Translations under genes and position numbers: made by a program
Shown: positions 1,469-55,491 of the stretch, one piece after another
Layout: the number at the start of each line of letters is the position of its first letter
Position numbering within the stretch: position 1 is the first letter of the stretch
Notes under the pieces: model-generated
What the model was told of the DNA's origin: nothing
Database searches by the model: none
What the model saw: the letters and a program-made list of their open reading frames with translations, nothing else
NCBI GenBank assembly: GCA_009692535.1
Contig: SHYZ01000004.1
Coordinates: forward strand, 1-56,134
Reading direction: 5' to 3'
DNA from: Myxococcales bacterium
GTDB taxonomy: Bacteria > Myxococcota_A > Polyangia > Haliangiales > SHYZ01
DNA length: 56,134 bases

Positions 1469-3615
1469 GGCGCTCGCGCAGCGCGCGGTGGCGGCAGCGC
1501 GCGCGCCATGAACTGCGCGCGATCGGCGACCGGCTGCCAGCCGAGCTCCTGCTTCGGCCGCGAGTTATCGAAGCGCCGAGCCGCGGCGCGCGTGGCGAGG
1601 TCGGTCCAGCTCGGCGGCTGCGCGCCCGGCTTGCGGATCGCCTTCTTCACCGCGTACTTGAAGTACTCCTCAGCGAACCAGCTCCAAATGGCCTGCGGAT
1701 GGAAGACGAAGTCGCGGCCGAGTCGCTCGCGCAACTGCGCCACCCAATCGCGCGCGGTCAGGAGCACGTCGCCGACCAGGTTGTAGGAGCGCCCCGCCGC
1801 TGCCGGCAGCGTCGCCATCTTGATCAGCGCCTCGGCGACATCGTCGACCAACACGAACGGCAGCGGCAGCCGACCGCCGCCCCAACCGAAGACCTGGCTG
1901 TCCTTGGCCCAGAAGCCGACGCCCGAGTGCTGCGGCGCGCCGCTCGCGCCGACCACGAAGCCGGGCCGCGCGATGACGAGGTCGAGACCGAGCTCGGTCG
2001 CCGCCTGCAGCAACGCCGCCTCGGCCGCGATCTTCCCGCGCGCATAGAGGCTGCGCGTGTCGGGCGTGGGGTCGAGGGGCGTCGCTTCGGTCACGGGCGC
2101 TGCGTTGCTGTCGGAGAGGTCGTAGGCGGCGATCGAGCTGGTGTAGACCAACCGCGTGACTCCGGCTCGCTTGCACGCCGCCGCCACCGTCCGCGCGCCG
2201 CCCACCATCGTCCGCGCGAACTGCTCCCAGGTGTCGCCGCCACCGGTCGCGAGGTGGATCGCCGCGTGGCAGCGTGCGGCCGCACGTTCGAGCGCCGCGG
2301 CATCCGTCACGTCGCCGGCGAAAAGCGTGACGCCGGGATCGCGCAACGCATCGGGCACGAACGCCGGCTTGCGCACCAGCGCATGGACGCGCTTGCCGTC
2401 GCGCAGCAGCCGCGCGACGACGTGACTGCCGATGAAACCGTTGGCGCCCGTGACCAGGATCGCATCGCGCGGCGCGCCGGGGGCCGGCGTGGCGTAGTTC
2501 GCGGCCGGGACGATCGACGGCGTGACCGCCGCAACCGTCGACTCCGACTCTGGCACCGCGGCCGCAGCGAGTTCGCACGCCTCGACCACGTCGAGACCCT
2601 GCCGCGCGTTGCAGGGATAGCGCGCCCCGCCCCGCAAACTGGCATGGAACGCCGCGATCGCGTCGCGCATGCCGACGTAAAACGGGTCGCTCCGCCCCTT
2701 CAACTTGAGCGTCGAGAGCACGTAGTCGAGCGCATTGCTCCAACCCTGCCGCAGCAGCGAGCGGGCGTTCCACTGCGCGTTCTTCAACTGATCCCAGAAG
2801 TCGGGCCACGGCGTTTTCTGCAACTGCGTCACGTGGCCACGCAACAGATCGACGTGCAGCGAGCCGTCCGGACCGAGCAGCCGCAGGAAGCTCTCGGCGA
2901 AGTCGCGCCCGAACGACAGGAAGAGCGACGCCGTGCCGCGCTCGTGGGTCAGCGACAGCTGCCAGGTGTCGTAGAAGACGACGCCCGGCGCCAGTTCACG
3001 CCGCCCACCCGGCGCCGCGGTCACGCTGCGCACCGGCCCCAACAGATCCACGAGCTGCGAGAACGGGTGGGTTGCCTGCTCGAACACGATGTTGCGCGGC
3101 GCCCTAAACATGTAATGCGAGAAGTCGCGCGTCGTGAGCTGCCGCAACGGCACCGACAAGCAGGCGAACACATGGTCGAGCGGGCCGAGCTGCTGCTCGC
3201 CGAGTCGCCGTTTCGCCTCGGTGAACGCCGGATGGAACGTCGCGTTGTGGTTGACCGCGAGCGGGAGCTTCAGCGACTCGGCGAGCTGCAGCAGTCGCAG
3301 CGCGTCGGCACGCGAGGTCGCGATCGGCTTTTCGAGGAAGACGCCCACGCCGGCTTCAAGCAGCTCCGTCGCGACCTCGACGTGGCGTTGCGGCGGGACC
3401 AGCGCGTGGGCGATGTCAGGCTTGCCAGCCGCGACCAGCTCGGCGATCGAGCCGTGCACGCGCGTGACGCCGTGCTTGCGCGCCAACGCCTCCGCGCGCG
3501 CGCGGTCGAGGTCGACCAGCGCCACCACCTCGACACCCGGCAGCTTGGTCAGGATCTGCAGGTGGTAATCGGCGATGAAGCCGGCCCCCACCACCGCCAC
3601 CTTGGTCGTCGCCAT
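1465..3615 (-). CDS. Fusion of Gfo/Idh/MocA oxidoreductase and NAD-dependent epimerase/dehydratase (extended SDR)
   Basis: N-half VAVVGAGFIA and FLEKP; C-half ILVTGANGFIG, YTSS, YARGK (YxxxK). Start moved to ATG 3615 (MATTKVAVVG). Confidence 0.85.
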   Translation of the reverse strand: MATTKVAVVGAGFIADYHLQILTKLPGVEVVALVDLDRARAEALARKHGVTRVHGSIAELVAAGKPDIAHALVPPQRHVEVATELLEAGVGVFLEKPIATSRADALRLLQLAESLKLPLAVNHNATFHPAFTEAKRRLGEQQLGPLDHVFACLSVPLRQLTTRDFSHYMFRAPRNIVFEQATHPFSQLVDLLGPVRSVTAAPGGRRELAPGVVFYDTWQLSLTHERGTASLFLSFGRDFAESFLRLLGPDGSLHVDLLRGHVTQLQKTPWPDFWDQLKNAQWNARSLLRQGWSNALDYVLSTLKLKGRSDPFYVGMRDAIAAFHASLRGGARYPCNARQGLDVVEACELAAAAVPESESTVAAVTPSIVPAANYATPAPGAPRDAILVTGANGFIGSHVVARLLRDGKRVHALVRKPAFVPDALRDPGVTLFAGDVTDAAALERAAARCHAAIHLATGGGDTWEQFARTMVGGARTVAAACKRAGVTRLVYTSSIAAYDLSDSNAAPVTEATPLDPTPDTRSLYARGKIAAEAALLQAATELGLDLVIARPGFVVGASGAPQHSGVGFWAKDSQVFGWGGGRLPLPFVLVDDVAEALIKMATLPAAAGRSYNLVGDVLLTARDWVAQLRERLGRDFVFHPQAIWSWFAEEYFKYAVKKAIRKPGAQPPSWTDLATRAAARRFDNSRPKQELGWQPVADRAQFMARALPPPRAARAP

Positions 3616-43532: not shown

Positions 43533-44754
43533 ATGTTCCGCCCCCGCGACCTCTCCGACGCCATCGAGCGCGCCTGCCGCAGCTTCCCCTGCGTGCTGGT
43601 CACGGGGCCGCGCCAGTCGGGCAAGTCGACCCTGCTGCGCCAGCGTTTCGGCGGCTCGCACGCATACGTCTCGCTCGACCAGCCCGACGCGCGCGAGCGG
43701 GCGCGGCGCGACCCGTCCGGCTTCTTCCGCCGCCATCCCGCGCCACTGATCCTCGACGAAGTCCAGCACGTCCCGGAACTGCTCTCCTACGTCAAGGCGA
43801 TGGTGGACGAGAACCGCCGGCCGGGCCAGTTCCTGTTGTCGGGCTCGCAGTCGTTCGCGCTGATGCAGGGCATCAAAGAGTCGCTGGCGGGCCGCGTCGC
43901 GGTGCTGACGCTGCTGCCGCTGTCGGCGGGAGAGATCGCCGGGCGCGTCCGCGACGCCCGCGACCGCGAGCCGATCCCGGCGCGCTGGATCGCCGGGCAG
44001 GGCGAGCTCCCGAAGCGGATCGCGCTGGCGCGCTGGTTGATGCGCGGCGGCTACCCTGAGCGCTGGTTCGCGCGCGGCGTCGATCAGGAGCTGTGGGCGG
44101 CGAGCTACGTGCAGACCTACCTCGAACGCGACGTGCGTTCCTTGATCGGCGTGCGCGACCTGAACGCGTTCGCCACCTTCCTGCGCCTCGTGGCGGCGCG
44201 CACCGGCCAGATCCTGAACCTCTCCGATCTCGCGCGCGACGCCGGCATCACCCATCCGACCGCCCGCCCGCCAATGGATCTCGGTCCTCGAGGCGAGCCA
44301 CCAGGTCCTGCTACTGCGCCCCCACTACGCCAACCTCGGCAAGCGGCTGATCAAGGCGCCGAAGATCTACTGGCTCGACACCGGCATCGCCGCCCATCTG
44401 GTCGGCCTCGACGAGCGCACCGTGACCACCCACGCGATGGCCGGCGCGCTGTTCGAGACCGCCGTCGTCGCCGAGATCCTGAAGGCGCACCACCATCGCG
44501 GCCGCGAGCCGCGCCTCTGGTACTTCCGCTCGCGCGACGGCTGGGAGGTCGACGTAGTGATGGAGCGCGGCGGCAAGTTGCACGCGATCGAGATCAAGCT
44601 CACCGCGACGCCGCGCCCACTCCACGCCGAGCCGCTCGAACGCTTCCGCCGCGCGACCAAGACCACGGCCGTCCCCGGCTTCGTGATCTGCGACGTCCAC
44701 CAACCCGAGCCGCTCGCGCCCGGCGTCACGGCGATGCCGTGGGGTCTGCTGTAG
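43533..44754 (+). pseudogene. AAA_14 + DUF4143 ATPase with C-terminal PD-(D/E)xK-like motif, frameshifted at (CCGC)3, 44260-44271
   Basis: GPRQSGKST, ILDEVQ, LSGSQ, GGYP, YLERD; continues in another frame with QWISVLEAS..KRLIKAPKIYWLDTG..GALFET..EVDVV..AIEIK. Removing one CCGC gives a 405-aa ORF. Confidence 0.85.
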
Positions 44755-44775
44755 CACCGACGGCTCCCGCATCGT

Positions 44776-44810
44776 CGCGGCGCGGAACCGGTGGCAGTCG
44801 AGGCGCCGGG
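44776..44810 (+). repeat. 35-bp direct repeat, copy 2 (pdxT-like relic downstream of the ATPase)
   Basis: CGCGGCGCGGAACCGGTG-GCA-GTCGAGGCGCCGGG; differs from copy 1 by one codon (Leu vs Ala). Confidence 0.75.
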
Positions 44811-44845
44811 TGTGGGTAGCGTTCGCGGTCGTTCTGGAGAACACC

Positions 44846-45730
44846 TTGAGTTCCGTCGCATGTTCGTTCGGCCTCGTGCTTCTGTCGCATTGTGCACCGC
44901 CCTCGGACTCGATCCAGGGCGCGCCGGTCGCTGCTCCCGCCTCTGGCGAGCGTGGCGCGTCGGCGGCAGCACCGGCGGTCGCTCCGTTCGACCACTCCGA
45001 CTGGGACACGATCCTGAAGCAGCACGGCAATGGCGACCGCGTCGACTACGCCGCGTTGAAGGCCGACCGCGCTCCGCTCGACGCTTACCTCGACCGCGTC
45101 GCGAAACTGCCGGCCGAGGCGCTGGCGAAGCTCCCGCGCGCGGACCAGATGGCGTTCTGGATCAACGCCTACAACGCGCTCACGCTGCAGACCATCGTCG
45201 ACCACTATCCGATCGCGGCGTCGGGCCTTTCGGCGCTGCGCTTCCCGAACAGCTCGATCCGCCAGCTCGACGACCCGTGGGGCAGCAAGCACACCATCGC
45301 CGGCGCACAACGCTCGCTCGATGACATCGAGCACAAGATCCTGCGCGCCGAATGGAAGGACGCCCGCATCCACGCCGCCGTCAACTGTGCGAGCGTCGGC
45401 TGCCCGCCGTTGCGCCTGGAGGCCTTCACCGGCGAGCAACTCGAAACGCAGCTCGACGAGCAGATGCGGCAGTTCGTCGCCGACCCGCTCCGCAACAAGA
45501 TCGACCCGGCGCAGAAGAAGATCGAACTCTCGCCGATCTTCGACTGGTTCGGCGAAGACTTCGGCACCAAGGCCGGCGGCAAGGGCAGCACGAAGGAGAG
45601 CGAGCGCGCGCTGCTCGCCTGGCTCGAGAAGTACGGCAAGCCTGAGTGGAAGGAGTTCCTCGCGAGCTTCGACCCCGACGACGTCGACTTCCTCGATTAC
45701 GACTGGACGCTGAACGAAGTCGTCCGCTGA
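44846..45730 (+). CDS. DUF547 domain exported protein
   Basis: FDHSDW, VDYAALK, AFWINAYNALT, LDDIEH, DARIHAAVNCASVGCPPL, YDWTLN; TTG 44846 with GGAG chosen as start (GTG 44810 is possible). Confidence 0.88.
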   Translation: MSSVACSFGLVLLSHCAPPSDSIQGAPVAAPASGERGASAAAPAVAPFDHSDWDTILKQHGNGDRVDYAALKADRAPLDAYLDRVAKLPAEALAKLPRADQMAFWINAYNALTLQTIVDHYPIAASGLSALRFPNSSIRQLDDPWGSKHTIAGAQRSLDDIEHKILRAEWKDARIHAAVNCASVGCPPLRLEAFTGEQLETQLDEQMRQFVADPLRNKIDPAQKKIELSPIFDWFGEDFGTKAGGKGSTKESERALLAWLEKYGKPEWKEFLASFDPDDVDFLDYDWTLNEVVR

Positions 45731-45780
45731 ACGATGGCAGGCGCGCTATCCTTCCGCCCCGCCTTGGGGGGGATCGTCGC

Positions 45781-48700
45781 ATGCCTGCCGACCCAATGAA
45801 TCCGCCGGCGGACGCGCCGCCGCCTGATCGCGCCGCTGGCGATGCGCGCGCGCTCGAACTCTTCGCGGTGTGGCTCGGCCGCCACAATGACGAAGTCGAC
45901 GACGCGAGCTTCGAGCGGATCTGCCGCGACCACGCCGAGATCGCCGCGGAGCTGCGCCGGCTGAAGCGCACGCTGGAACAGGTGGCGGCGGCACTGCCGC
46001 GCGAGGAGTCACCCGACGGCGTCGCTGATCGCCTGGCCGCGCAGTTCGGCGACGAGGTCGATCCGCGGATCTCGCTCGACGGCACCGACGAGCGCGCGCA
46101 CGCTGGCGCGAGCCGCGGCGCGGTCCATCCGCCGCCCACCTCGACCTGGTCGCGGCTGGTCGAGCGCATCCGCGGCCGCACGGCGCCGAGCACTCGCTAC
46201 ACGGTCGGCGAGGTGCTCGGCAAGGGCGGGATGGGCGTGGTCTATTCGATCTGGGACGCCGACCTGCGCCGCCGCCTGGCGATGAAGGTGATCCGCCGCA
46301 GCGGCGAACGCGAGGCGCCGCCGCCACGTCTTGGCGCGACGCCGTCGCCGGCAGCCGTCGCCACTGCGCAAGCGCCGATCGATCTGGTGAGCCTCGGCCG
46401 CTTCATCGAAGAGGCGCAGATCACCGGGCAACTGAACCACCCCGGCATCGTGCCGATCCACGAACTCGGCCTCGACGCCGACGGCCGCGTCTACTTCACG
46501 ATGCGCCTGGTGAAGGGCTCGACCTTCGCGCAGGTGATCGAGTGGGCGGCGACCGGCGAGCAGGGCTTCAACCCGACGCGCGCGCTCTCCGTGCTGGTCG
46601 CGGTGTGCGACGCGCTCGCCTACGCGCACGCGAAAGGCGTGGTCCATCGCGATCTGAAGCCGGCCAACGTGATGGTCGGCCACTTCGGCGAGACCTATGT
46701 CATGGACTGGGGCCTCGCCCGCGTGCGCGGCCAGAAGGACCGCCACGATCTGCGCTTGAAGGTCACCGACACCACGCGCTTCAAAACCGAGCGTGACGAG
46801 CCGGCCTCCTCGCGCGATGACGCGCAGCTGATGACGATGGACGGCGCCATCGTCGGCACGCCGGCCTACATGCCGCCCGAGCAGGCGTTCGGCAAGACCG
46901 AGCTGATCGACGCGCGCGCCGATGTCTACGCGGTGGGCGCGATGCTCTACCACCTGCTGACGCGGCGCATGCCCTACGTCGAGCCCGGCGCGCGCATGTC
47001 GCCGCGGATGATCCTCCTGGCGGTGCAGCATGGCCCGCCGAAGCCGCTGCACGAGATCGATGCCACGGTGCCGGCCGAGCTCGCCGCCATCTGCGAACGC
47101 GCCATGGCCCGCGAACTCGGCAAACGCTACGCGAGCACGCAGTCGCTGGCTGGCGAACTGCGCGCCTATCTCGAACACCGCGTCGTCGCCGCCTACGAGA
47201 CCGGCGCCGTCGCCGAGCTGAAGAAGTGGATCGAGCGCAACCAGGCGCTGGCCGCGTCGCTGGTGGCGGTGGTGGTGCTGGCGATCGGTGGGCTGAGCTG
47301 GAACGCATGGACGAGCCATCGGCATAACGAGGCAATCGCGACGAAGAATCGCGATCTCACCACGGCCAACGCGATTGCCGAGCAGAACGCGTCGGACGCG
47401 CGCGAGCAGGCGACCCGCGCCGACGCCGCCAAGCGCGAGGCGGAGGCGAATCTCGCCGACGTGCTGCGATTGGGCGACATCAAGCGGGTGCGCGATCTCG
47501 AGGCGCGCGCCAAGGAGCTGTGGCCGGCACGGCCGGAACTTGTGCCGGAGATCGAGGGGTGGATCGCGGACGCGAAGGAGGTCGTGAGCCGGCTCGATGC
47601 GCACCGAGTGTCGCTGGCGACGCTGCGGGAGAGGGCGCTGCCGGCGGACGCGCCGGAGGAGACGACCAGCGTCACGGCGCAGCGGCGGGAAGCCGAGCAG
47701 CGGCAGCGGCGCGAGGATCTAAAGCGGCTCGACGCGTTCCTCGCGAAGCGCGCGGAAGCGCTGGCAGCAGCCGATCAGGCGGAGAGTGCGGCGGCCGACG
47801 CCGAGACGAACGCCGAGAAGAAGGAAGCTCTCGGCGCCGCGCTGGCGGGATTGGCGATACAGCGCGCGGCCGTAGCGGAGGAACTGCGGGGCGGCAGCGG
47901 TGGTCGTGGCACCGACGCAGGCGCCGAAGCGGGCGCCTCTGCGTCCGCCGATCGCGTCTGGCGATTTGCCGCCGACGCCACCAGGCCGCAGTGGCGCCAC
48001 GATCAGCTTGCGGAGCTGGTCGCCGCGATCGAGGCGCTGCAGGCTGGGATCGAGGCTCCCGCGGAAGTGGTCGCCTCATGGAATCCGTCCGCCACCGAAG
48101 CGGCGCCGCCCGCTGCCTTCGTGCCGGCGGCCGCGACGATTGCCGCGCTGCAGCGGCGCATCGACCACGCGGCGTGGGTCGAGCAGGTGTCGCTGGATGA
48201 GGCGCTCGACGCCTGGCAGGAAGCGATCACGCGCATCGCCACGAACCCGAAGTACGCCGTCTTCGCCGATCGCCCGTTCAAGGAGCAGATCGGACTGGTG
48301 CCGATCGGCCCCGATCCCGACTCCGGGCTCGAGGAGTTCTGGCACGTCGGGACGGGCGCGCGGCCAAAGCACGATGCGACGAGCGGTCACGTCGTGATGC
48401 GCGACGCGACCGGCGTCGTTTTCATCCTGCTGCCGGGGGGCACCTTCACCATGGGCTCCCGCGATCCCGACGCCGACCACGCGGTCGGCACCCCGAACGT
48501 CAATCCCGTGTTGCGGAGCGACGAGCAACCTCCCCACGCCGTGTCGCTGGCGCCGTTCTTCGTCTCGAAGTTTGAGCTGACGCAGGCGCAATGGCTGCGG
48601 GTCGCCGGCAGCAATCCAAGCTGGTTCCAGGAGCAGGACGGGATCGGCAGGGCCTATCCGGCGACTTCACCCGTTGAGCAGGTGTGGTGGGACGTCGCGC

Positions 48701-49212
48701 ACGATCAGTGCGCCGCACTGGAACTGCGGCTGCCGACCGAGGCGCAGTGGGAGTACGCCGCGCGTGCGGGCACGACCTCGGTCTATTGGTGCGGCGATGA
48801 TCCGGCGGAGATCGATCACCGCAAGGCGGGCAACATCTTCGATCAGAAGGCTATTTCCGTCGGCTACTCGGTGCCGAAGACAGGTTCGACGGAAGCTTGG
48901 GACGATGGCTTCAGTGATGTCGCGCCAGTCGGGACGTTTACGGCGAATCCGTTCGGTCTTCACGACGTGATCGGCAACGTTTGGGAGTGGTGCGAGGACG
49001 AATACGCCGGCGACTACGAGAGCGCCCCCGCACGTCCCGGAGACGGAGAGCGATCGCTTCCCGTGCAGGCTGGCACCCGCCACCGCGTCTTCCGCGGCGG
49101 CGGCTGGCTCAACGGGGCCGTGTACGCGCGTTCGGCGAGCCGCTACCGGGGCGATCCCTCGGACCGCATCAACAGCCTCGGCGTCCGTCCCGCCAGGGTC
49201 ATCACTTGGTGA
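45781..49212 (+). CDS. DGR target: Ser/Thr protein kinase - TM helix - coiled coil - FGE-sulfatase/C-type lectin domain carrying the VR
   Basis: Kinase: GEVLGKGGMGVVY, LAMK, HRDLKPAN, DWG, GTPAYMPPEQ. TM: ALAASLVAVVVLAIGGLSW. FGE: FTMGS, RLPTEAQWEYAARAG, NPFGLHDVIGNVWEWCED, RVFRGGGW, GVRPAR. Start moved to ATG 45781. Confidence 0.93.
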   Translation: MPADPMNPPADAPPPDRAAGDARALELFAVWLGRHNDEVDDASFERICRDHAEIAAELRRLKRTLEQVAAALPREESPDGVADRLAAQFGDEVDPRISLDGTDERAHAGASRGAVHPPPTSTWSRLVERIRGRTAPSTRYTVGEVLGKGGMGVVYSIWDADLRRRLAMKVIRRSGEREAPPPRLGATPSPAAVATAQAPIDLVSLGRFIEEAQITGQLNHPGIVPIHELGLDADGRVYFTMRLVKGSTFAQVIEWAATGEQGFNPTRALSVLVAVCDALAYAHAKGVVHRDLKPANVMVGHFGETYVMDWGLARVRGQKDRHDLRLKVTDTTRFKTERDEPASSRDDAQLMTMDGAIVGTPAYMPPEQAFGKTELIDARADVYAVGAMLYHLLTRRMPYVEPGARMSPRMILLAVQHGPPKPLHEIDATVPAELAAICERAMARELGKRYASTQSLAGELRAYLEHRVVAAYETGAVAELKKWIERNQALAASLVAVVVLAIGGLSWNAWTSHRHNEAIATKNRDLTTANAIAEQNASDAREQATRADAAKREAEANLADVLRLGDIKRVRDLEARAKELWPARPELVPEIEGWIADAKEVVSRLDAHRVSLATLRERALPADAPEETTSVTAQRREAEQRQRREDLKRLDAFLAKRAEALAAADQAESAAADAETNAEKKEALGAALAGLAIQRAAVAEELRGGSGGRGTDAGAEAGASASADRVWRFAADATRPQWRHDQLAELVAAIEALQAGIEAPAEVVASWNPSATEAAPPAAFVPAAATIAALQRRIDHAAWVEQVSLDEALDAWQEAITRIATNPKYAVFADRPFKEQIGLVPIGPDPDSGLEEFWHVGTGARPKHDATSGHVVMRDATGVVFILLPGGTFTMGSRDPDADHAVGTPNVNPVLRSDEQPPHAVSLAPFFVSKFELTQAQWLRVAGSNPSWFQEQDGIGRAYPATSPVEQVWWDVAHDQCAALELRLPTEAQWEYAARAGTTSVYWCGDDPAEIDHRKAGNIFDQKAISVGYSVPKTGSTEAWDDGFSDVAPVGTFTANPFGLHDVIGNVWEWCEDEYAGDYESAPARPGDGERSLPVQAGTRHRVFRGGGWLNGAVYARSASRYRGDPSDRINSLGVRPARVITW
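49076..49198 (+). repeat. DGR variable repeat (VR)
   Basis: 123 nt, ungapped match to the TR at 51548-51670; 15 mismatches, all opposite TR adenines; encodes the last residues of the FGE domain. Confidence 0.96.
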
Positions 49213-49487
49213 CTCTTACGACTTCACCGACCGCATTGGCGATCACCGTGAAGCATCGCTGAGGTCCGCGGTCCGCAGGCCAAGCGCAGCGTGGCCGAAG
49301 GACGGCGGACCGGCCGGGAGCAAGGCGGTGAACCTGGCGCGGAATCGGGAATGACGAGTCCGCATTGCGCGCAATGAGCGGCCGCACGGATTGACATCAA
49401 ACGTGCGATGCGGATGCTGCCCCGATTTTTTTCGATGGCGGTTCGGCAAAGGGTGGGTACTGGGCGGTCTCCTTATGGAGACTCGCG

Positions 49488-50126
49488 ATGCGCGTCAGAC
49501 TGCTCACGTTCCGCTATTCCGCGACACTCGGCGGCTTCGATGACACGCCGCTGGTCGAACTGCTGCGCGACAAGGAACTGATCTCCTTCCGCGAGCACTT
49601 CTTCGCGGTGAACGAAGTTCCGCACCTGACCTGCGTCGTTACGTGGCAGGAGGCGCTGGTGCCGACGCATCGGATCGGCTCGGGAGCAGCCGTTGGCGCC
49701 GTGCCGTCAGCCGCCGCATCCGGCAGAACGGAAACGGCCGCGCGAGCGCGATTCGAGCCAACCCCGCAAGGTCACCCCGCCGCCGAACTCGACGAGCCGC
49801 AGCGCCTGCTCTTCAATTCGCTCCGCGAGTGGCGCGCCACCACCGCGCGCGCCGAAGGCGTGCCACCGTTCCTGGTGTTCACCAACCGCCAACTCGCCTG
49901 GATCGCCACCCAGCGCCCGGAGTCGGCCAACTCGCTCGCCAATGGCCACGGCATCGGCCCGTCGAAGACGCGCCGCTATGCCGAGGCCGTGCTGCGCGTG
50001 CTGCATGGGCCACGGCCGGTGGCGGCGCCTGAACCGGGGGTGGAGTTCGATGCACCGGCTCGAGCCGGGCCGGTCCCTCCCGCCGACTTGATCGTGGCGG
50101 TCCTCACCGCGGCACCGCAACCGTGA
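49488..50126 (+). CDS. HRDC-domain protein (DGR accessory)
   Basis: LFNSLREWRATTARAEGVPPFLVFTNRQLAWIA..GIGPSKTRRYAEAVL is an HRDC signature; GGAG RBS. Confidence 0.88.
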   Translation: MRVRLLTFRYSATLGGFDDTPLVELLRDKELISFREHFFAVNEVPHLTCVVTWQEALVPTHRIGSGAAVGAVPSAAASGRTETAARARFEPTPQGHPAAELDEPQRLLFNSLREWRATTARAEGVPPFLVFTNRQLAWIATQRPESANSLANGHGIGPSKTRRYAEAVLRVLHGPRPVAAPEPGVEFDAPARAGPVPPADLIVAVLTAAPQP

Positions 50127-50518
50127 GCGCCATCCCGATCGATCGCCCGGCTCCGTCAACCGCCGGCCCGGAACTCCTGGTGCTGGCGCAATGGGAGGAG
50201 TTCACGGGTTGGCTTCTCGCCCACACCGGCCGCTGGCCGAAGTCGGTCCGCTTCACGCTGGCGCAGCGCGTCGAGGAGCACGCGCTCGACATCACCGAGA
50301 TGCTGGTCGAGTCGCGCTACGTACCGGCTGCACGCGCGGCGCACTTGCGTGAAGTGAACCTCCGGCTCGAGCGGATGCGCCACCTGCTGCGCCTCGCGCT
50401 CGCCACCCACGCCACCTCGAATTGCGGCTTCGAGTCCGTCATGCGCGGCATCGACGAATGCGGTCGGATGGTCCACGGCTGGCGCGAGGCGTTGAAGCCG
50501 AGGAGCACAGAGCGATGA
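50123..50518 (+). CDS. avd: Accessory variability determinant Avd (four-helix bundle)
   Basis: 131 aa, helical; WPKSVRFTLAQRVE..LERMRHLLRLA..DECGRMVHGW resembles the Avd consensus; GTGA overlap with the HRDC gene and ATGA overlap with the RT gene. Confidence 0.88.
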   Translation: MSAIPIDRPAPSTAGPELLVLAQWEEFTGWLLAHTGRWPKSVRFTLAQRVEEHALDITEMLVESRYVPAARAAHLREVNLRLERMRHLLRLALATHATSNCGFESVMRGIDECGRMVHGWREALKPRSTER

Positions 50519-51528
50519 AGCGCGTCGGCAACCTGTGGCCGCTGGTCACCGATTTCGGAAACCTCCGCCGCGCCGCGTTCCGCGCCGCCGCCAGCAAGCG
50601 CGACCAGCGCGGAGTCGCGGGCTTCCTCGAACGGCTCGAGCCGGAGCTCTTCGCGCTGCAGCGCAAGCTGGTCGACGCCACGTGGCGCCCCGCCCCCACC
50701 CACTCCTTCACGATCCGCGATCCGAAGACGCGCGTCATCACGGTGGCGCCGTTCTGCGACCGCGTCGTCCACCACGCGCTGATCGATCCGCTCGAGCCGC
50801 TGCTCGACCGACGTCTCTGCTTCGAGAGCTTCTCCTGCCGGCGCGGCAAGGGGACGCACAAGGCGCTCAATCACGCGCAGCGGATGCTGCGGCGGCATGC
50901 ATGGTTCCTGAAGCTCGACGTGAAGGCGTTCTTCCCGTCGCTGTCACACGCCGTGGTGATGGCGACGCTGGCGCGCATCGTGAAGGATCCAGAGGTTCTG
51001 CGGTTGGTGGAGCGGATCCTCGCGGCGCACGGAACGGGCGAAGGCGGCGCGCGCGGCGTGCCGATCGGCAACCTCACCAGCCAGTGGTTCGCGAATCTCG
51101 TGCTCGGCCGGCTCGATCACCAGGTGAAGCAGGAACTGCGGATCCCCGGCTACGTGCGCTACATGGACGACTTCGTGCTGTTCGCCGAGGACAAGGCGAC
51201 TCTGCAGGCCGCGCACGGTTGGATCGAGCGGTGGCTCGGCGAGGAGCTCTCCCTGCGGTTGAAGCCGACGGCGACCCAATTGGCGCCGGCGAGCGAGGGA
51301 TTGCCGTTCCTCGGAATCCACCTGTGGCGCGGGACGCGCCGCCTGCGACCCGCGAACCGGCGCCGCACGGTGGCGCGGCTCGCGACGCGCGGGCGGCAGT
51401 TCGCCGCCGGTCGGATCGAGGAGCCGGCCTACCTCGACAGCGCTCGCTCGATCTTCGCCCACTTGCACGGCACCGGATGCCGTGCCTTCGCGCGGCAGCT
51501 CGCAGAAAGGAGTTGTGAGCCCATGTGA
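50515..51528 (+). CDS. DGR reverse transcriptase
   Basis: 337 aa from ATG 50515 (AGGAG RBS); DPKTRVI, DRVVHHAL, KGTHKA, LKLDVKAFFPS, GVPIGNLTSQWFAN (DGR-type SQ motif), YVRYMDDFVLF, FLG; no maturase or endonuclease domain. Confidence 0.95.
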   Translation: MKRVGNLWPLVTDFGNLRRAAFRAAASKRDQRGVAGFLERLEPELFALQRKLVDATWRPAPTHSFTIRDPKTRVITVAPFCDRVVHHALIDPLEPLLDRRLCFESFSCRRGKGTHKALNHAQRMLRRHAWFLKLDVKAFFPSLSHAVVMATLARIVKDPEVLRLVERILAAHGTGEGGARGVPIGNLTSQWFANLVLGRLDHQVKQELRIPGYVRYMDDFVLFAEDKATLQAAHGWIERWLGEELSLRLKPTATQLAPASEGLPFLGIHLWRGTRRLRPANRRRTVARLATRGRQFAAGRIEEPAYLDSARSIFAHLHGTGCRAFARQLAERSCEPM

Positions 51529-51547
51529 TGGGGACCGGCCACTGGCT

Positions 51548-51670
51548 CCCGCAACCGCGTCAACCGCGGCGGCGGCTGGAACAACGAGGCCGTGAACGCG
51601 CGTTCGACGAACCGCAACCGGAACGATCCCTCGAACCGCAACAACAACCTCGGCGTCCGTCCCGCCAGGG
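51548..51670 (+). repeat. DGR template repeat (TR)
   Basis: Begins 19 nt after the RT stop; 12 AAC codons in the VR frame and 28 adenines, of which 15 are substituted in the VR. Confidence 0.96.
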
Positions 51671-51880
51671 CGTCGATCCGCCCGATCGCGATGGTCACTT
51701 GGCCAAAGGCCCCGGACCGCCGCGCCGCGCAAGTGATGCCCAGGCTGGTCTCCTGCGCTTCGATCGGGTGGACGGCTCGCGGTAGCGAGCCGCAGCCCGA
51801 TCGCGGCCGAAGAGTCATGCGCCGCCGGCCGTGGTAGCCGAGGAGACTCGGCGAAGCGGCTGGCGACGCCTCTTTTCGAG
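51671..51880 (+). ncRNA. Putative structured 3' spacer of the DGR RNA
   Basis: Hairpins CGATCGGG..CGGCTCGC-GGTA-GCGAGCCG..CCCGATCG (51761-51803) and GCCGAG-GAGA-CTCGGC (51837-51852) within a longer stem. Confidence 0.5.
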
Positions 51881-51989
51881 TTCGACTCGACCGACGTGGC
51901 TCCGCGAGTCGGCGGTCTCCCACTCCTCGCAAGCGCAATGGAGGACGGTGCACGCCGGGCCCGTTTCCAAGATCTTCAATCGCCGACGA

Positions 51990-52700
51990 CTACTTCCCCA
52001 GCTTCCTCGCCAGCAGTCGCACGACATGCGTCTTCGGGCCGAGGTTCCAGTCGCTCTCGAAGCGGCCGTCCTCGTAGGCGAGCACGCGCCAGTCGGCGAA
52101 GGTTTGCAGCAGCTCGCCCGGCTTGAACAGCGTCTCCTTTGGCGGGCCGCCGCCGTCGTGCTCGCTGCCCTGGCCCTCGATCACGATCACGCCGCCCTGC
52201 TTCACGGCCGCCTTCAGTCGGTCGACGATCGAGAGCGCGGGGTTGAAGTAGATCACGCTCAGCAGGTCCCACTGCGCGGTGCCGTAGTCGAAGGCGTAGA
52301 GGTCGGCCTCCCGGCAATCGAGGGTGAGCGACTTCGCCGCAGCGCTCGCGCGCGCCTTGTCGAGCCCGACCTTGCTGATGTCGACAGCCGTGGTCTTCCA
52401 GCCGCCGGCCGCCAGCAGCAGTGCGTTGCGTCCATCGCCGGCAGCGAGGTCGACCGCCGTGCCGGGCGCGAGCCACTTCTCGTCGGCGAGGCGACGGAGC
52501 GAGCGAGCGAGAAAGTCGTTCGGTTCGGTGCGGTAGCGCGGCTTGGCGGTGCTAAAGACCTTGTCCCACTTCTCCGGATCGCTGACGCCGCCACCCTGCG
52601 GCTGCGACGGCGAGCGCCACGCGATCGCGAGGCCGGCAACAACCGCGACGGCGAGCAGCAACGCCGCTGCGGCAGCTCGTTCAAGAGCGGATTTCCTCAT
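51990..52700 (-). CDS. Class I SAM-dependent methyltransferase with N-terminal hydrophobic anchor
   Basis: VDLAAGDGRNALLLA, AVDISKVGL, ADL, GGVIVIE; GGAG RBS before ATG 52700. Confidence 0.88.
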   Translation of the reverse strand: MRKSALERAAAAALLLAVAVVAGLAIAWRSPSQPQGGGVSDPEKWDKVFSTAKPRYRTEPNDFLARSLRRLADEKWLAPGTAVDLAAGDGRNALLLAAGGWKTTAVDISKVGLDKARASAAAKSLTLDCREADLYAFDYGTAQWDLLSVIYFNPALSIVDRLKAAVKQGGVIVIEGQGSEHDGGGPPKETLFKPGELLQTFADWRVLAYEDGRFESDWNLGPKTHVVRLLARKLGK

Positions 52701-52912
52701 GCGTCGATCTCCCTCGCGCTTCATTTCGTCGCCTGACCCGTCGACGGTCGATGCGGCGCACGATCGTGCCAGAAAACTCTGCGACTGCACGCGCGCGATT
52801 CGCGTTTGCCTGACGCTTCACCCAGCACACCGCCGAACTAGGCGCGCAAGGGAGAGGGCGGCAGGGCGGCACGACCGGCCTGCAAGACGACGCGCCAACA
52901 CGAGATCACACC

Positions 52913-53788
52913 TTGATTCACGCTGCTGCCGCCCTGCTCCTTTCTTGGCTGAACTGCGTCGGCGAACCCGAAGCGCCGGCAGCTGACTTGATGGTCGCCG
53001 CGGCGACCCGTCCGATCTTGGTCGAGGCGGCGCCACTGCTCGGCGGCGACCGCCCGCTCAAGGCGAGCGGGCTCGCGCCAGCGAAGCGCTGCGCCCCGTG
53101 GGTCCTGATCGCGTCCGCGAGCGACGCCCCGCCCGATCGCTACCGGCAGTGGACCGAGGCTCTGGCGCACTGCGGATTCGCGACGCTGGTCGTCGAGCGG
53201 CAGCAGGACGAGGCGTGGTGGCGCTACGCCAAGGCGATCGAAGACGCGGCGACGCTGCTCCGCGCCGGAGCCGCGACGCCGGACCACCCGTTGTTCGAGG
53301 CGATCGATCCGCACCGATTGCTGGTCCTCGCCGACGGTGACGGGACGACCGCGGCGGCGCGGGCGGCGGCGACCATCGTCGATCTCGACGGACTGTTGCT
53401 GCTCGACCCCAACGATGCCGGCGCAGCACTGCCATGGCTCGCCCGCATCGAGGCGCCCGTCGCGACTGTGGCGAGCGGCTTCGAGCGCGAAGAGCACGCG
53501 AACACCTGGTTCCGCGCCGGCCGCGGTGGAACGAGTCGCCGTTGGTTGGTGCAATTCCAAGGCGAGCAGGGGCTGCCTCCGGACCACGGAAAGGAACGGC
53601 CGCGACTCGAACAGGAAGTGCGCGACGTCTGTGTCGCCTTCGTCGAATGCACGCTGCCGACTGCGACGGCTACAGCGACGAGCACGCGGACGCTGACCTT
53701 CGCGGAACGCGCGGGTCGCGGCACGATCGATCGCACGATCAAATCCACCGACGACGCGGCGCGCATCGCGCTCGCGCAATCGCGCTGA
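52913..53788 (+). CDS. Exported hypothetical protein, possibly a degenerate alpha/beta hydrolase
   Basis: Signal-like start; YRQWTEALAHCGFATL, IDPHRLLVLADGDG and LLLLDP recall chlorophyllase-like folds but there is no GxSxG. Confidence 0.5.
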   Translation: MIHAAAALLLSWLNCVGEPEAPAADLMVAAATRPILVEAAPLLGGDRPLKASGLAPAKRCAPWVLIASASDAPPDRYRQWTEALAHCGFATLVVERQQDEAWWRYAKAIEDAATLLRAGAATPDHPLFEAIDPHRLLVLADGDGTTAAARAAATIVDLDGLLLLDPNDAGAALPWLARIEAPVATVASGFEREEHANTWFRAGRGGTSRRWLVQFQGEQGLPPDHGKERPRLEQEVRDVCVAFVECTLPTATATATSTRTLTFAERAGRGTIDRTIKSTDDAARIALAQSR

Positions 53789-54514: not shown

Positions 54515-54729
54515 CCGCGGATCGACCACTCCGCAGCACTCCGCACAGCGATCTCTCGCTCCGCAGCGCCAACGCACAGCGCCTCGAACGGGCGGCTCTG
54601 GCGCACGGTACGATGCGCCGCGCCCGCCGGATCGACGCGCAAAGTGCATCGATCAAGCGTCGGCGCGCCGCCGAATGGCGGTTCCCACTGTCCCATTGCA
54701 AACAGTTCCATTGCGAGAGGAAGAAGCCG

Positions 54730-55491
54730 ATGGTTGCAACCGAAGTCGCGTTGCGTTCGCGCGGCAGCGCGCTGAAGGCCGTGCTCGTGCTGGTGGTGGC
54801 GGCGGGCGCTGCCTATGCCTTGTTTCCGGGCGTCCGCGCCATCTTCGACCAGCAGCTCGACAAGGTGGGCGGCTGGAACGACGAGGCGCGCCGCCACGAT
54901 CCAGTCGGCTTCATCGACTACTCGATCGGCAAGCTCAACGAGAACGTCGCCCAGTTCGGCATGGTGAAGGTCGACCTCGCGGTTGCCAAGACGAAGATGC
55001 AGAAGATCCGCGACGACAGCCAATCGAAGGTCACCTTCGCGAGCAAGGAGCTCGAGACTTTCAAGGCGGCCTACAAGGACGCGGCGGGCGGGAAGGGCTG
55101 GCCAGTGACGCTCGCGGGGAGGACCTACGACGAGGCACAGCTCAAGCAACAGGTGAACGTGTTCCTCACGCAGCGGACGAGCTACGAGATGTCCGCGAAG
55201 CAGGCTGCTGACGGCGCCGCCTCGGCCGGCAAGCGCGAAATGGACGTCCTGGCGCGCGTCACAGAGAGCAAGGCGAAGCTCGAGCTGCTGAAGACGCAAC
55301 GGGAGTTGGTGAAGGTCGCCAAGCTCACCGCCGAAACTGAAGCGCTGCTCGCCGAAGTGAACGAAGTGCTCCTGCAGAATGAGGAAGCCACCGCGGCGAA
55401 CCCGGTGCTCACGGTGGAAGAGATGATGAAGCAGAAAGAGTCGAGCTCTGGCGCGTCGAACGCCAACGTCGACGCCTTCCTCAACGGATGA
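54730..55491 (+). CDS. Membrane-anchored coiled-coil protein (PspA/IM30-like topology, tentative)
   Basis: N-terminal TM (AVLVLVVAAGAAYALF), long heptad helices, C-terminal VDAFLNG; purine-rich RBS. Confidence 0.75.
   Translation: MVATEVALRSRGSALKAVLVLVVAAGAAYALFPGVRAIFDQQLDKVGGWNDEARRHDPVGFIDYSIGKLNENVAQFGMVKVDLAVAKTKMQKIRDDSQSKVTFASKELETFKAAYKDAAGGKGWPVTLAGRTYDEAQLKQQVNVFLTQRTSYEMSAKQAADGAASAGKREMDVLARVTESKAKLELLKTQRELVKVAKLTAETEALLAEVNEVLLQNEEATAANPVLTVEEMMKQKESSSGASNANVDAFLNG

Follow-up and report, generated by a model that had tools for sequence, protein, structure and literature searches.

In the diversity-generating retroelement (DGR) of Bordetella phage BPP-1 (order mtd-avd-TR-brt), sequence passes from a template repeat (TR) to a variable repeat (VR) with changes specific to template adenines, a reverse transcriptase (RT) and the accessory protein Avd take part, and the VR lies at the C-terminus of a C-type-lectin-fold (C-lectin) protein, a tail fiber. 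The DGR of Treponema denticola (Architecture C in the survey of Wu et al. 2018, PMC5758913) has a lipoprotein target, TvpA, with a variable C-lectin domain of the formylglycine-generating enzyme (FGE) type, and an HRDC gene that adjoins the RT gene, between TR and RT. The same survey counts 14 of 372 DGRs with an HRDC accessory, roughly half of which also have avd, and it describes an avd-RT-TR order (architecture B2) and a class of kinase-bearing FGE-type targets (b12). N-terminal Hanks-type kinases joined to diversified C-lectin domains are described for cyanobacteria (Vallota-Eastman et al. 2020, PMC7517822), and kinase-C-lectin targets for Thiohalocapsa (Dore et al. 2024, PMC10907252). The literature thus already contains kinase targets, HRDC accessories, and the avd-RT-TR order. 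Here we describe a locus that has all three, in a stretch of 56,134 nt from a Myxococcales bacterium (GenBank assembly GCA_009692535.1, contig SHYZ01000004.1), hereafter the window. The window is the whole of one contig from a 3.63-Mb, 235-contig assembly that is 80% complete. We consider it very probable that the locus is a complete chromosomal DGR that has been active recently and that diversifies the sensor domain of a receptor kinase.

One line of evidence is the repeat pair. The VR (49076-49198, + strand) and the TR (51548-51670, + strand, 20 nt 3' of the RT stop codon) align without gaps over 123 nt, and all 15 of their differences (A>G 7, A>T 6, A>C 2) fall on TR adenines. Given 28 adenines in the 123 nt of the TR, the chance that 15 random differences would all fall on A is (28/123)^15, or ~2e-10. 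Gapless homology actually begins 6 nt earlier (49070/51542), and these extra nucleotides include one non-adenine difference (T in the TR, A in the VR, at 49075). Read in the frame of the target gene, the TR contains exactly 12 AAC codons plus GAG, ACG, GAT, and AGG. The AAC codons hold 24 of the 28 template adenines, and 10 of the 12 are altered in the VR. The AAC codons set a diversity ceiling of 15^12 = 1.3e14, which rises to ~2.5e16 proteins once the four codons with one A each (4 x 4 x 4 x 3) are counted, and none of the codons reachable from the TR is a stop. The first-pass annotation of this sequence, which had proposed a DGR on the basis of the gapless pair and had put its capacity at about 1e14 variants without stops, was accurate on these points, and every codon change that it named is present. 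The VR ends 14 nt before the stop codon of the target. Its GC-rich last 23 nt (49176-49198), which resemble an initiation of mutagenic homing (IMH) sequence, are identical to the end of the TR; this is unlike BPP-1, in that there is no IMH/IMH* difference inside the repeat.

We scanned all 235 contigs for further matches to the TR, leaving adenines free and allowing up to eight other substitutions, and recovered nothing beyond the known pair. By tblastn, the same contigs yielded neither a second RT nor a second Avd. Because the assembly is 80% complete, additional distant targets may exist. A TR-like 20-mer at 54868-54887 was rejected as a chance match; the open reading frame (ORF) that contains it (54613-55491) has no relationship to the C-lectin domain (E 1.4 by BLASTP). 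It should also be mentioned that GTCACTTGG on the TR side (51694-51704), ~24 nt past the end of the TR/VR homology, resembles TCATCACTTGG on the VR side (49199-49209). The VR-side segment encodes the target C-terminus VITW and the TR-side segment, in the TR frame, MVTW. This likeness may be left over from the duplication by which the TR arose, with the RNA stem interrupting it, or it may be due to chance.

A second line of evidence comes from natural variation. Four public freshwater sequencing runs (X1-X4) hold the locus, in all cases as assembled contigs. Those from X1 match the window exactly. In X2, a second sample from the same study, a contig spanning 49071-50085 (record 11) has 18 differences from the window, all within its first 105 bases, with none listed from 49176 to 50085. 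Positions are listed for 14 of them (49108, 49109, 49115, 49123, 49135, 49138, 49139, 49144, 49145, 49150, 49151, 49162, 49168, and 49175), and all 14 are TR-adenine sites (chance ~1e-9). The resulting VR allele has 10 changed codons, in frame and without stops. Another X2 contig (record 12, 50065-52200) spans the entire TR and departs from the window once, at 51781, which is not in the TR. Apart from these, one difference is listed for the X2 contigs of the locus, 48900 G>A. All X1 and X2 contigs across the TR thus have it unaltered, and the X2 sequence departs from that of the window at 14 or more adenine sites in 123 nt versus just two listed sites in the other ~4.3 kb. We conclude that the VR was rewritten after these lineages had all but stopped diverging and, because the listed differences of the second allele are all at TR-adenine sites and the TR has stayed the same, that the rewriting was recent. 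Two near-identical lineages therefore carry VRs rewritten at template-adenine sites. Recent activity had previously been suggested from the absence of non-adenine drift in the VR, and the X2 allele now bears this out. The contigs of X3 and X4 are identical to the window over parts of the locus, with 49123-49269 uncovered, and an exact 42-nt VR flank had zero matches in JGI metagenome contigs. Many pieces of 66-68 nt from the same runs, in otherwise nonmatching contigs, match 51552-51661 with 9-10 differences each, including non-adenine differences at 51588, 51627, and 51631. We read these as repeats of other organisms rather than as variants of the TR in the window.

The genes expected of a DGR are present. 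On the + strand the order is target, HRDC accessory, avd, RT, TR; overlaps of 4 nt join the HRDC gene to avd and avd to the RT gene, and all four genes are open. The RT gene (50515-51528) encodes 337 aa from MKRVGNLW, a start that we placed by alignment to the BPP-1 RT (bRT) and relatives. The RT motifs that had been reported as intact are indeed found (YVRYMDDF and PIGNLTSQ, with IGNLTSQ corresponding to IGSLTSQ in bRT). The top PDB match is bRT itself (8ub7, 3.4e-41), compared to 4.1e-23 for the best group II intron RT, and the protein matches a PHROG RT family at 3.1e-96. The NCBIfam group II intron model scores 136 bits, under its cut-off of 300. In the cryo-EM preprint on the BPP-1 complex (10.1101/2023.10.23.563531), bRT residues K29, F66, R74, I76, I181, G182, and Q187 touch the template or the incoming nucleotide; in the alignment to 8ub7, the window RT has identical residues at all seven positions. 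The adjacent avd gene (accessory variability determinant; 50123-50518, + strand), also noted previously, encodes a protein with an isoelectric point of 8.85 that matches Pfam bAvd (42.6 bits, cut-off 40) and the PHROG "Avd protein of DGR" (1e-14). Taken together, adenine-specific TR-to-VR differences, Avd, conserved template and nucleotide contacts in the RT, and a VR at the C-terminus of a C-lectin domain are features shared with BPP-1, and they uphold the original identification of the locus as a DGR. It is distinct from BPP-1 in being chromosomal, in its gene order, in its extra HRDC accessory, and in having a receptor kinase rather than a tail fiber as the predicted target. The T. denticola cassette is not known to carry avd. 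With that system, the window shares an FGE-type C-lectin variable protein and an HRDC gene, and it differs in combining HRDC with Avd, in having the TR after the RT gene, and in the kinase target. The HRDC gene, the kinase and transmembrane parts of the target, and the position of the TR 3' of the RT gene went unmentioned in the first-pass annotation.

For the phylogenetic check that the first-pass annotation had proposed, we searched for related loci using one genome per species. This returned 574 relatives, and the best 80 (L013-L092) were kept. The RT tree (n=89) includes the window, these 80, a sequence from a genome of the window's family (L002), and seven RTs, taken from related genomes, with scores over the group II intron cut-off. 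Two fragments (L005 and L011) and one sequence of unclear RT class (L012) were left off. The tree was made by a quick search, with support from the Shimodaira-Hasegawa-like approximate likelihood ratio test (SH-aLRT) only, and it holds DGR-like and group II RTs (no retrons or other RT classes); within that sampling, the 82 DGR-like RTs are separated from the seven group II intron RTs at SH-aLRT 100. The window RT is sister to that of L013, a Phycisphaerales metagenome-assembled genome (SH-aLRT 100), and the pair falls within a mostly planctomycete clade of 15 rows (SH-aLRT 100), 11 of which have adenine-biased TR/VR pairs. Within these limits, the proposed check upholds the placement of the RT among those of DGRs. 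The lineage as a whole spans Planctomycetota, Bdellovibrionota, Bacteroidota, Bacillota, and other phyla, and the nearest relatives of both the RT and the target are planctomycete; judged by these relatives, the host would be a planctomycete, probably of the Phycisphaerales. Over the matched stretch, the L013 RT is 85% identical to that of the window, and among the genomes of 40 relatives the closest RT is 45% identical. As a side observation, the TR of L013 is 91% identical to that of the window (L013:1050-1230 and 3330-3580).

In the 80 related loci, we searched for repeat pairs of at least 50 nt that have five or more mismatches and in which no fewer than 80% of the mismatches lie on A in one of the copies. 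Such adenine-biased pairs were detected in 52 of the 80, and the TR is 3' of the RT gene in 48 of these 52. Among the 64 loci with at least 1100 nt of sequence 5' of the RT gene, 43 have an HRDC homologue, 51 have Avd, and 40 have both, always in the order HRDC-Avd-RT. Given these counts, the layout seen in the window is the norm for its RT lineage.

The sequence 3' of the TR is also conserved in related loci, and we predict that it forms a structured noncoding RNA (51668-51817, + strand). RNAalifold analysis of 16 loci gave 19 pairs, 17 of them with compensatory changes. A covariance model (R1, built on 16 sequences) matches 40 of 81 sources (the window and L013-L092), including 24 outside the training set, with one match per source, on the RT strand, at the 3' end of the TR. 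In the R1 alignment, which was fitted to the model and so favors the structure, 90.6% of cells are standard pairs versus 32.6-44.9% when partners are slid by one to three columns, changes occur on both sides in 19 of 19 pairs, and the observed covariation score was reached by none of 500 shuffles. The predicted structure has a closing helix (51670-51675 with 51734-51739, to which two more G-C pairs, out to 51668/51741, can be added by eye) and inner helices (51680-81 with 51729-30 and 51687-90 with 51721-24). It continues with a conserved CCAG (51740-51743), one strand of a duplex that is variable in sequence (51743-51753), a hairpin (51757-63 with 51801-07), and a conserved GAAGAG (51809-14). 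The other strand of the duplex, GGGGACCGGCC (51530-51540, + strand), is upstream of the TR, so that 11 bp would be formed across it. An equivalent duplex occurs in 32 loci, with differing sequences; cognate strands pair with a mean of -21.6 kcal/mol, versus -14.3 for noncognate ones, and the cognate partner ranks first in 16 of the 32 and in the top three in 26. No Rfam family matched within 45000-53000 at E values up to 1.

For BPP-1, the preprint cited above describes a stem-loop after the TR, a TR:Sp primer duplex with a priming adenosine, an upstream:Sp "stop" duplex, and a stem-loop with adenosines after it, and it predicts such elements for 207 of 278 Avd-bearing DGRs. The RNA parts in the window correspond to these in order, i.e., a stem-loop right after the TR, an upstream-downstream duplex across it, and a hairpin and then adenosines. 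By this analogy, we infer that complementary DNA (cDNA) synthesis is primed at or near A51742, with copying from ~51666-51667, a few bases inside the end of the TR/VR homology.

The target gene (45781-49212, + strand) encodes 1143 aa from an ATG at 45781. The frame is open from 45646, and we placed the start at 45781 because the upstream DUF547 ORF ends at 45730. The protein has Pfam matches to Pkinase (1.3e-30) and FGE-sulfatase (1.6e-42) and consists of an N-terminal region, a Ser/Thr kinase, one predicted transmembrane helix, a linker of ~350 residues, and a C-terminal FGE-type C-lectin domain. The Hanks-type kinase domain (46198-47142, + strand; PF00069, residues 185-499 of the ORF, 107 bits) has the glycine loop GKGGMG, AMK with the catalytic lysine, HRDLKPAN, DWG (a DFG variant), and PPE. 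The predicted helix (47245-47310, + strand; residues 489-510 of 1143) is the sole stretch with a Kyte-Doolittle mean above 1.6 in a 19-residue window (peak 2.22), and the kinase is not preceded by an N-terminal signal sequence. Because this single hydrophobic stretch follows the kinase, the target is probably a receptor-type Ser/Thr kinase, with the kinase in the cytoplasm and the last ~630 residues outside. The C-lectin domain (48421-49197, + strand) ends in the VR. Its top PDB match by sequence is T. denticola TvpA (2y3c, 5.9e-20). An AlphaFold2 model of the last 288 residues, based on 52 related-locus sequences (predicted local distance difference test [pLDDT] 85, predicted template modeling score [pTM] 0.86), matched FGE 5nyy (TM 0.69) and TvpA 2y3c (TM 0.65) in Foldseek.

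Proteins with a similar C-lectin domain are common: 2073 of 5653 candidates of 628-2001 residues had matches at E<=1e-5. Among 120 such proteins listed, 97 have both Pkinase and FGE-sulfatase domains, and many are named planctomycete. In the closest homologues (61-67% identical in the region), the AAC-templated positions differ, and the scaffold R..RGGGW...ARSA.R...P..R...LG.RPAR is kept. Elsewhere in the genome there is one more kinase-plus-FGE-domain gene (contig C9, 19886-21691), along with three FGE-domain matches (C111, C176, and C223) and 33 further kinase-domain matches on 30 other contigs (tblastn); none of the other kinase or FGE genes in the genome has a VR that matches the TR of the window. 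The combination of an N-terminal Hanks-type kinase and a diversified C-lectin domain is like that in the cyanobacterial targets and class b12 noted above. However, most cyanobacterial variable proteins are predicted to be cytosolic (PMC7517822), whereas a helix is predicted between kinase and sensor here, which would put the variable domain outside the cytoplasm. The putative antigen sensors of multicellular bacteria described by Dore et al. 2024 (PMC10907252) have C-lectin VRs fused to signaling modules including a protein kinase, and some are predicted to be periplasmic.

We propose that the element works as follows. RNA from just 5' of the TR to ~150 nt past it would fold into the conserved scaffold, comprising a composite stem-loop that closes on the last bases of the TR, the duplex of 51530-51540 with 51743-51753, and a hairpin with adenosines after it. 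Together with Avd, the RT would copy the TR into cDNA, probably primed in cis near the conserved CCAG (51740-51743) as in phage BPP-1, and would misincorporate opposite the 28 template adenines. In the 3' end of the target gene, the mutagenized cDNA would then take the place of the VR. If the VR forms the ligand-binding tip of an outer FGE-type C-lectin domain and the kinase is in the cytoplasm, the population could gain up to ~1e16 sensor versions wired to one kinase.

Several considerations weigh against this interpretation. An inactive element, with old VR/TR differences and a second allele that was inherited by two coexisting strains, is the more serious alternative, although we think it unlikely. 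The X1-X4 sequences are contigs, not reads, so that minor variants are hidden and what we have are two alleles from two samples rather than ongoing variation within a population. X1 may be the source of the window rather than an independent sample, and four of the 18 differences in record 11, within ~37 nt or less of the contig end, are unlisted and unplaceable. Two listed sites outside the VR, 48900 and 51781, also distinguish X1 from X2, so that each allele could have been fixed some time ago in one of two near-identical strains. In the sister element of L013, several of the differences between the VR and its own TR are at non-adenine positions, which means that elements of this lineage can decay. 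The L013 copy may be either decaying or a mosaic that arose by co-assembly. No sigma-70-like promoter was found in 45300-52100, and terminator-like sites occur there at the rate expected from shuffles. It could further be objected that Avd scores 70.6 bits with NCBIfam DivGenRetAVD, under the cut-off of 80, that the RT tree contains only DGR-like and group II sequences, and that a GC-rich hairpin is missing after the VR (folded as DNA, 49185-49240 and two relatives are on a par with shuffles, with z of -0.16, -0.02, and +0.98). According to Wu et al. 2018 (PMC5758913), 127 of 372 DGRs have such an inverted repeat after the VR, so it is not defining. An inactive element is difficult to reconcile with four open genes, the last three joined by 4-nt overlaps, with intact active-site and template-contact residues in the RT, with RNA scaffold pairs that are intact in the window, and with a VR that has no non-adenine difference over 123 nt. 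It is also at odds with the contrast between at least 14 adenine sites within the VR and two listed sites in the remaining ~4.3 kb. It is less probable still that the X2 allele is an assembly artifact, in which sequence of this locus was fused to a VR or TR belonging to a related DGR of some other organism in the water sampled. Related repeats do occur in these samples (the 66-68-nt pieces with 9-10 differences), and the X2 assembly breaks at the VR (records 9 and 11). However, the 18 differences are confined to the first 105 bases of record 11, which has none listed from 49176 to 50085, and a foreign repeat would be expected to differ at non-adenines too, as the other pieces do at 51588, 51627, and 51631, yet all 14 listed differences are on TR adenines.

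A separate question concerns what is being diversified. The topology of the target comes from one type of evidence, a hydropathy plot, and the function of the C-terminal domain could be read differently, as a formylglycine-generating or sulfoxide-synthase enzyme fused to a kinase, in which case the repeat would not serve binding diversity. Homologues carry the database name "SUMF1/EgtB/PvdO family nonheme iron enzyme" and the closest matches by structure are solved FGEs. To be catalytic, an FGE requires two cysteines in the C-terminal segment, and titles of FGE PDB entries among the Foldseek matches name C336S and C341S mutants. The target has no cysteine after WEWCEDEY, including the whole of the VR, which makes a catalytic FGE unlikely. 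The best solved match by sequence is a DGR variable protein (TvpA) and, as noted, close homologues vary at the AAC-templated positions and keep the scaffold residues. We regard an enzyme as highly improbable.

Because the VR and TR ends are identical, the repeat itself cannot separate recipient from donor and any discrimination must lie downstream, as is reported for some DGRs (Wu et al. 2018, PMC5758913). In place of the GC-rich hairpin of BPP-1, the window has a tandem 8-nt direct repeat, CTCTTACG/ACTTCACC (49213-49228, + strand), directly after the stop codon of the target. It is missing on the TR side and is a candidate target-site marker. Related loci from high-GC genomes (other planctomycetes) show it as ACTTCACCACTTCACC, and those from low-GC phyla as CTTTTACCCTTTTACC. 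Among 60 windows of 70 nt downstream from the VRs of related DGRs, 28 contain two T[TC]AC units spaced 7-9 nt apart, versus 111 of 16102 tiled control windows of the same loci and, in shuffles (n=200), a mean of 0.67 of 60 and a maximum of 5; the motif was defined after viewing the sequences, which makes the enrichment look somewhat better than it is. The tandem repeat is also present at several second targets. It is not indispensable, because the diversified VRs of L021 (at 478) and L034 (at 12278) are without it. No description of it was found in the texts searched (including PMC5758913, PMC4891356, and 10.1101/2024.11.15.621889; supplements and subscription journals were outside the scope), and it may be in print.

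Some further observations on these sequences can be recorded here. Tandem repeats of 7-9 nt (CTTCACC or CTTTTACC type) follow the VR stop codon in several phyla (L016-L018, L020-L022, L024, L027-L029, L035, L037-L040, L042, L047, L049, L051, L061, L065, L075, and L081). In other RT subclades the tandem words are different (CTGTCCT in L070, TTCTGA in L074, ATCTGA in L085), and by eye L072, L086, and L087 have hairpin-like inverted repeats in place of the tandem repeat. We considered pairing between the tandem repeat and the RNA 3' of the TR and rejected it; by eye only GGTA/TACC is common to both, and there is no covariation between high-GC and low-GC loci.

The HRDC accessory gene (49488-50126, + strand) encodes 212 residues, comprising a conserved N-terminal domain of 55 residues, a linker, and an HRDC domain (Pfam HRDC, 6.7e-18). 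In an AlphaFold2 model (pLDDT 82.8, pTM 0.48), the C-terminal domain is confident and matches the HRDC domain of E. coli RecQ (1wud, TMt 0.84 in Foldseek). The N-terminal 55 residues are predicted, also confidently, to form a beta-alpha-beta-beta domain of unknown fold with no significant PDB match in Foldseek, and a protein atlas search with the first 60 residues gave no usable match. A predicted complex of the RT with the HRDC accessory scored 0.30 versus a mark of 0.32, in a run made without controls, and so speaks neither for nor against an interaction. Across 52 loci, HRDC and the tandem repeat occur together in 24, HRDC alone in 14, the repeat alone in two, and neither in 12; this co-occurrence is inseparable from shared ancestry, because it amounts to four or five phylogenetically independent contrasts. 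We tentatively suggest, while regarding it as rather doubtful, that in the widespread HRDC-bearing lineage the tandem repeat, not a hairpin, marks the retrohoming target, and that the HRDC accessory, through its N-terminal or HRDC domain, reads this repeat and so tells the VR from the TR.

In one planctomycete DGR (L019:6088-6606), the HRDC homologue has an in-frame stop; that locus has two VRs, each with 20 adenine-only differences. A conserved G-rich block (49440-49475, consensus GGGGAGGG..GGCGGGTACCGGG) stands 10-40 nt 5' of the HRDC gene start and was aligned in the planctomycete relatives L013, L017, L018, L022, L024, and L019. It could be a leader, a ribosome-binding region, or a run that forms a G-quadruplex.

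The element is chromosomal. Its flanks include queA, an NAD-dependent DNA ligase (ligA), nadA, an SNO/pdxT-type amidotransferase, acyl-CoA ligases, glycosyltransferases, and a methyltransferase. Comparison of 26 flanking ORFs to Pfam and seven to PHROGs revealed no phage family of known function, only housekeeping or unknown families, in line with the first-pass view that no phage genes are nearby. Of the flanking ORFs compared to PHROGs, just the methyltransferase had a match, to a family of unknown function. GC content is even along the window (0.66-0.73). Directly 5' of the target, on the same strand, are an AAA_14/DUF4143 ATPase (43533-44819) and a DUF547 protein (44810-45730), the ORF of which overlaps the long open frame of the target; in related loci we found no link of either to the DGR. 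The targets of Dore et al. 2024 (PMC10907252) are associated with STAND-NTPase or ternary conflict systems. The window differs in that its flanks hold DUF547, AAA_14 ATPase, and methyltransferase genes, and no such neighbors were found.

Overall, the related loci yield a well-supported covariation model of the RNA scaffold for DGRs in which the TR follows the RT gene, and this model fits the parts seen in cryo-EM work on BPP-1. For the HRDC-bearing lineage, a testable rule of target recognition is suggested by VR and TR ends that do not differ, by the lack of a hairpin, and by the tandem repeat that is conserved after the VR. If the rule is true, a protein plus a DNA word would specify where a DGR writes. 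More generally, a receptor kinase with a predicted outer sensor that is rewritten by a DGR, represented by two natural alleles, supports the view that DGRs widen the sensing capacity of bacterial receptors, beyond phage tail fibers.

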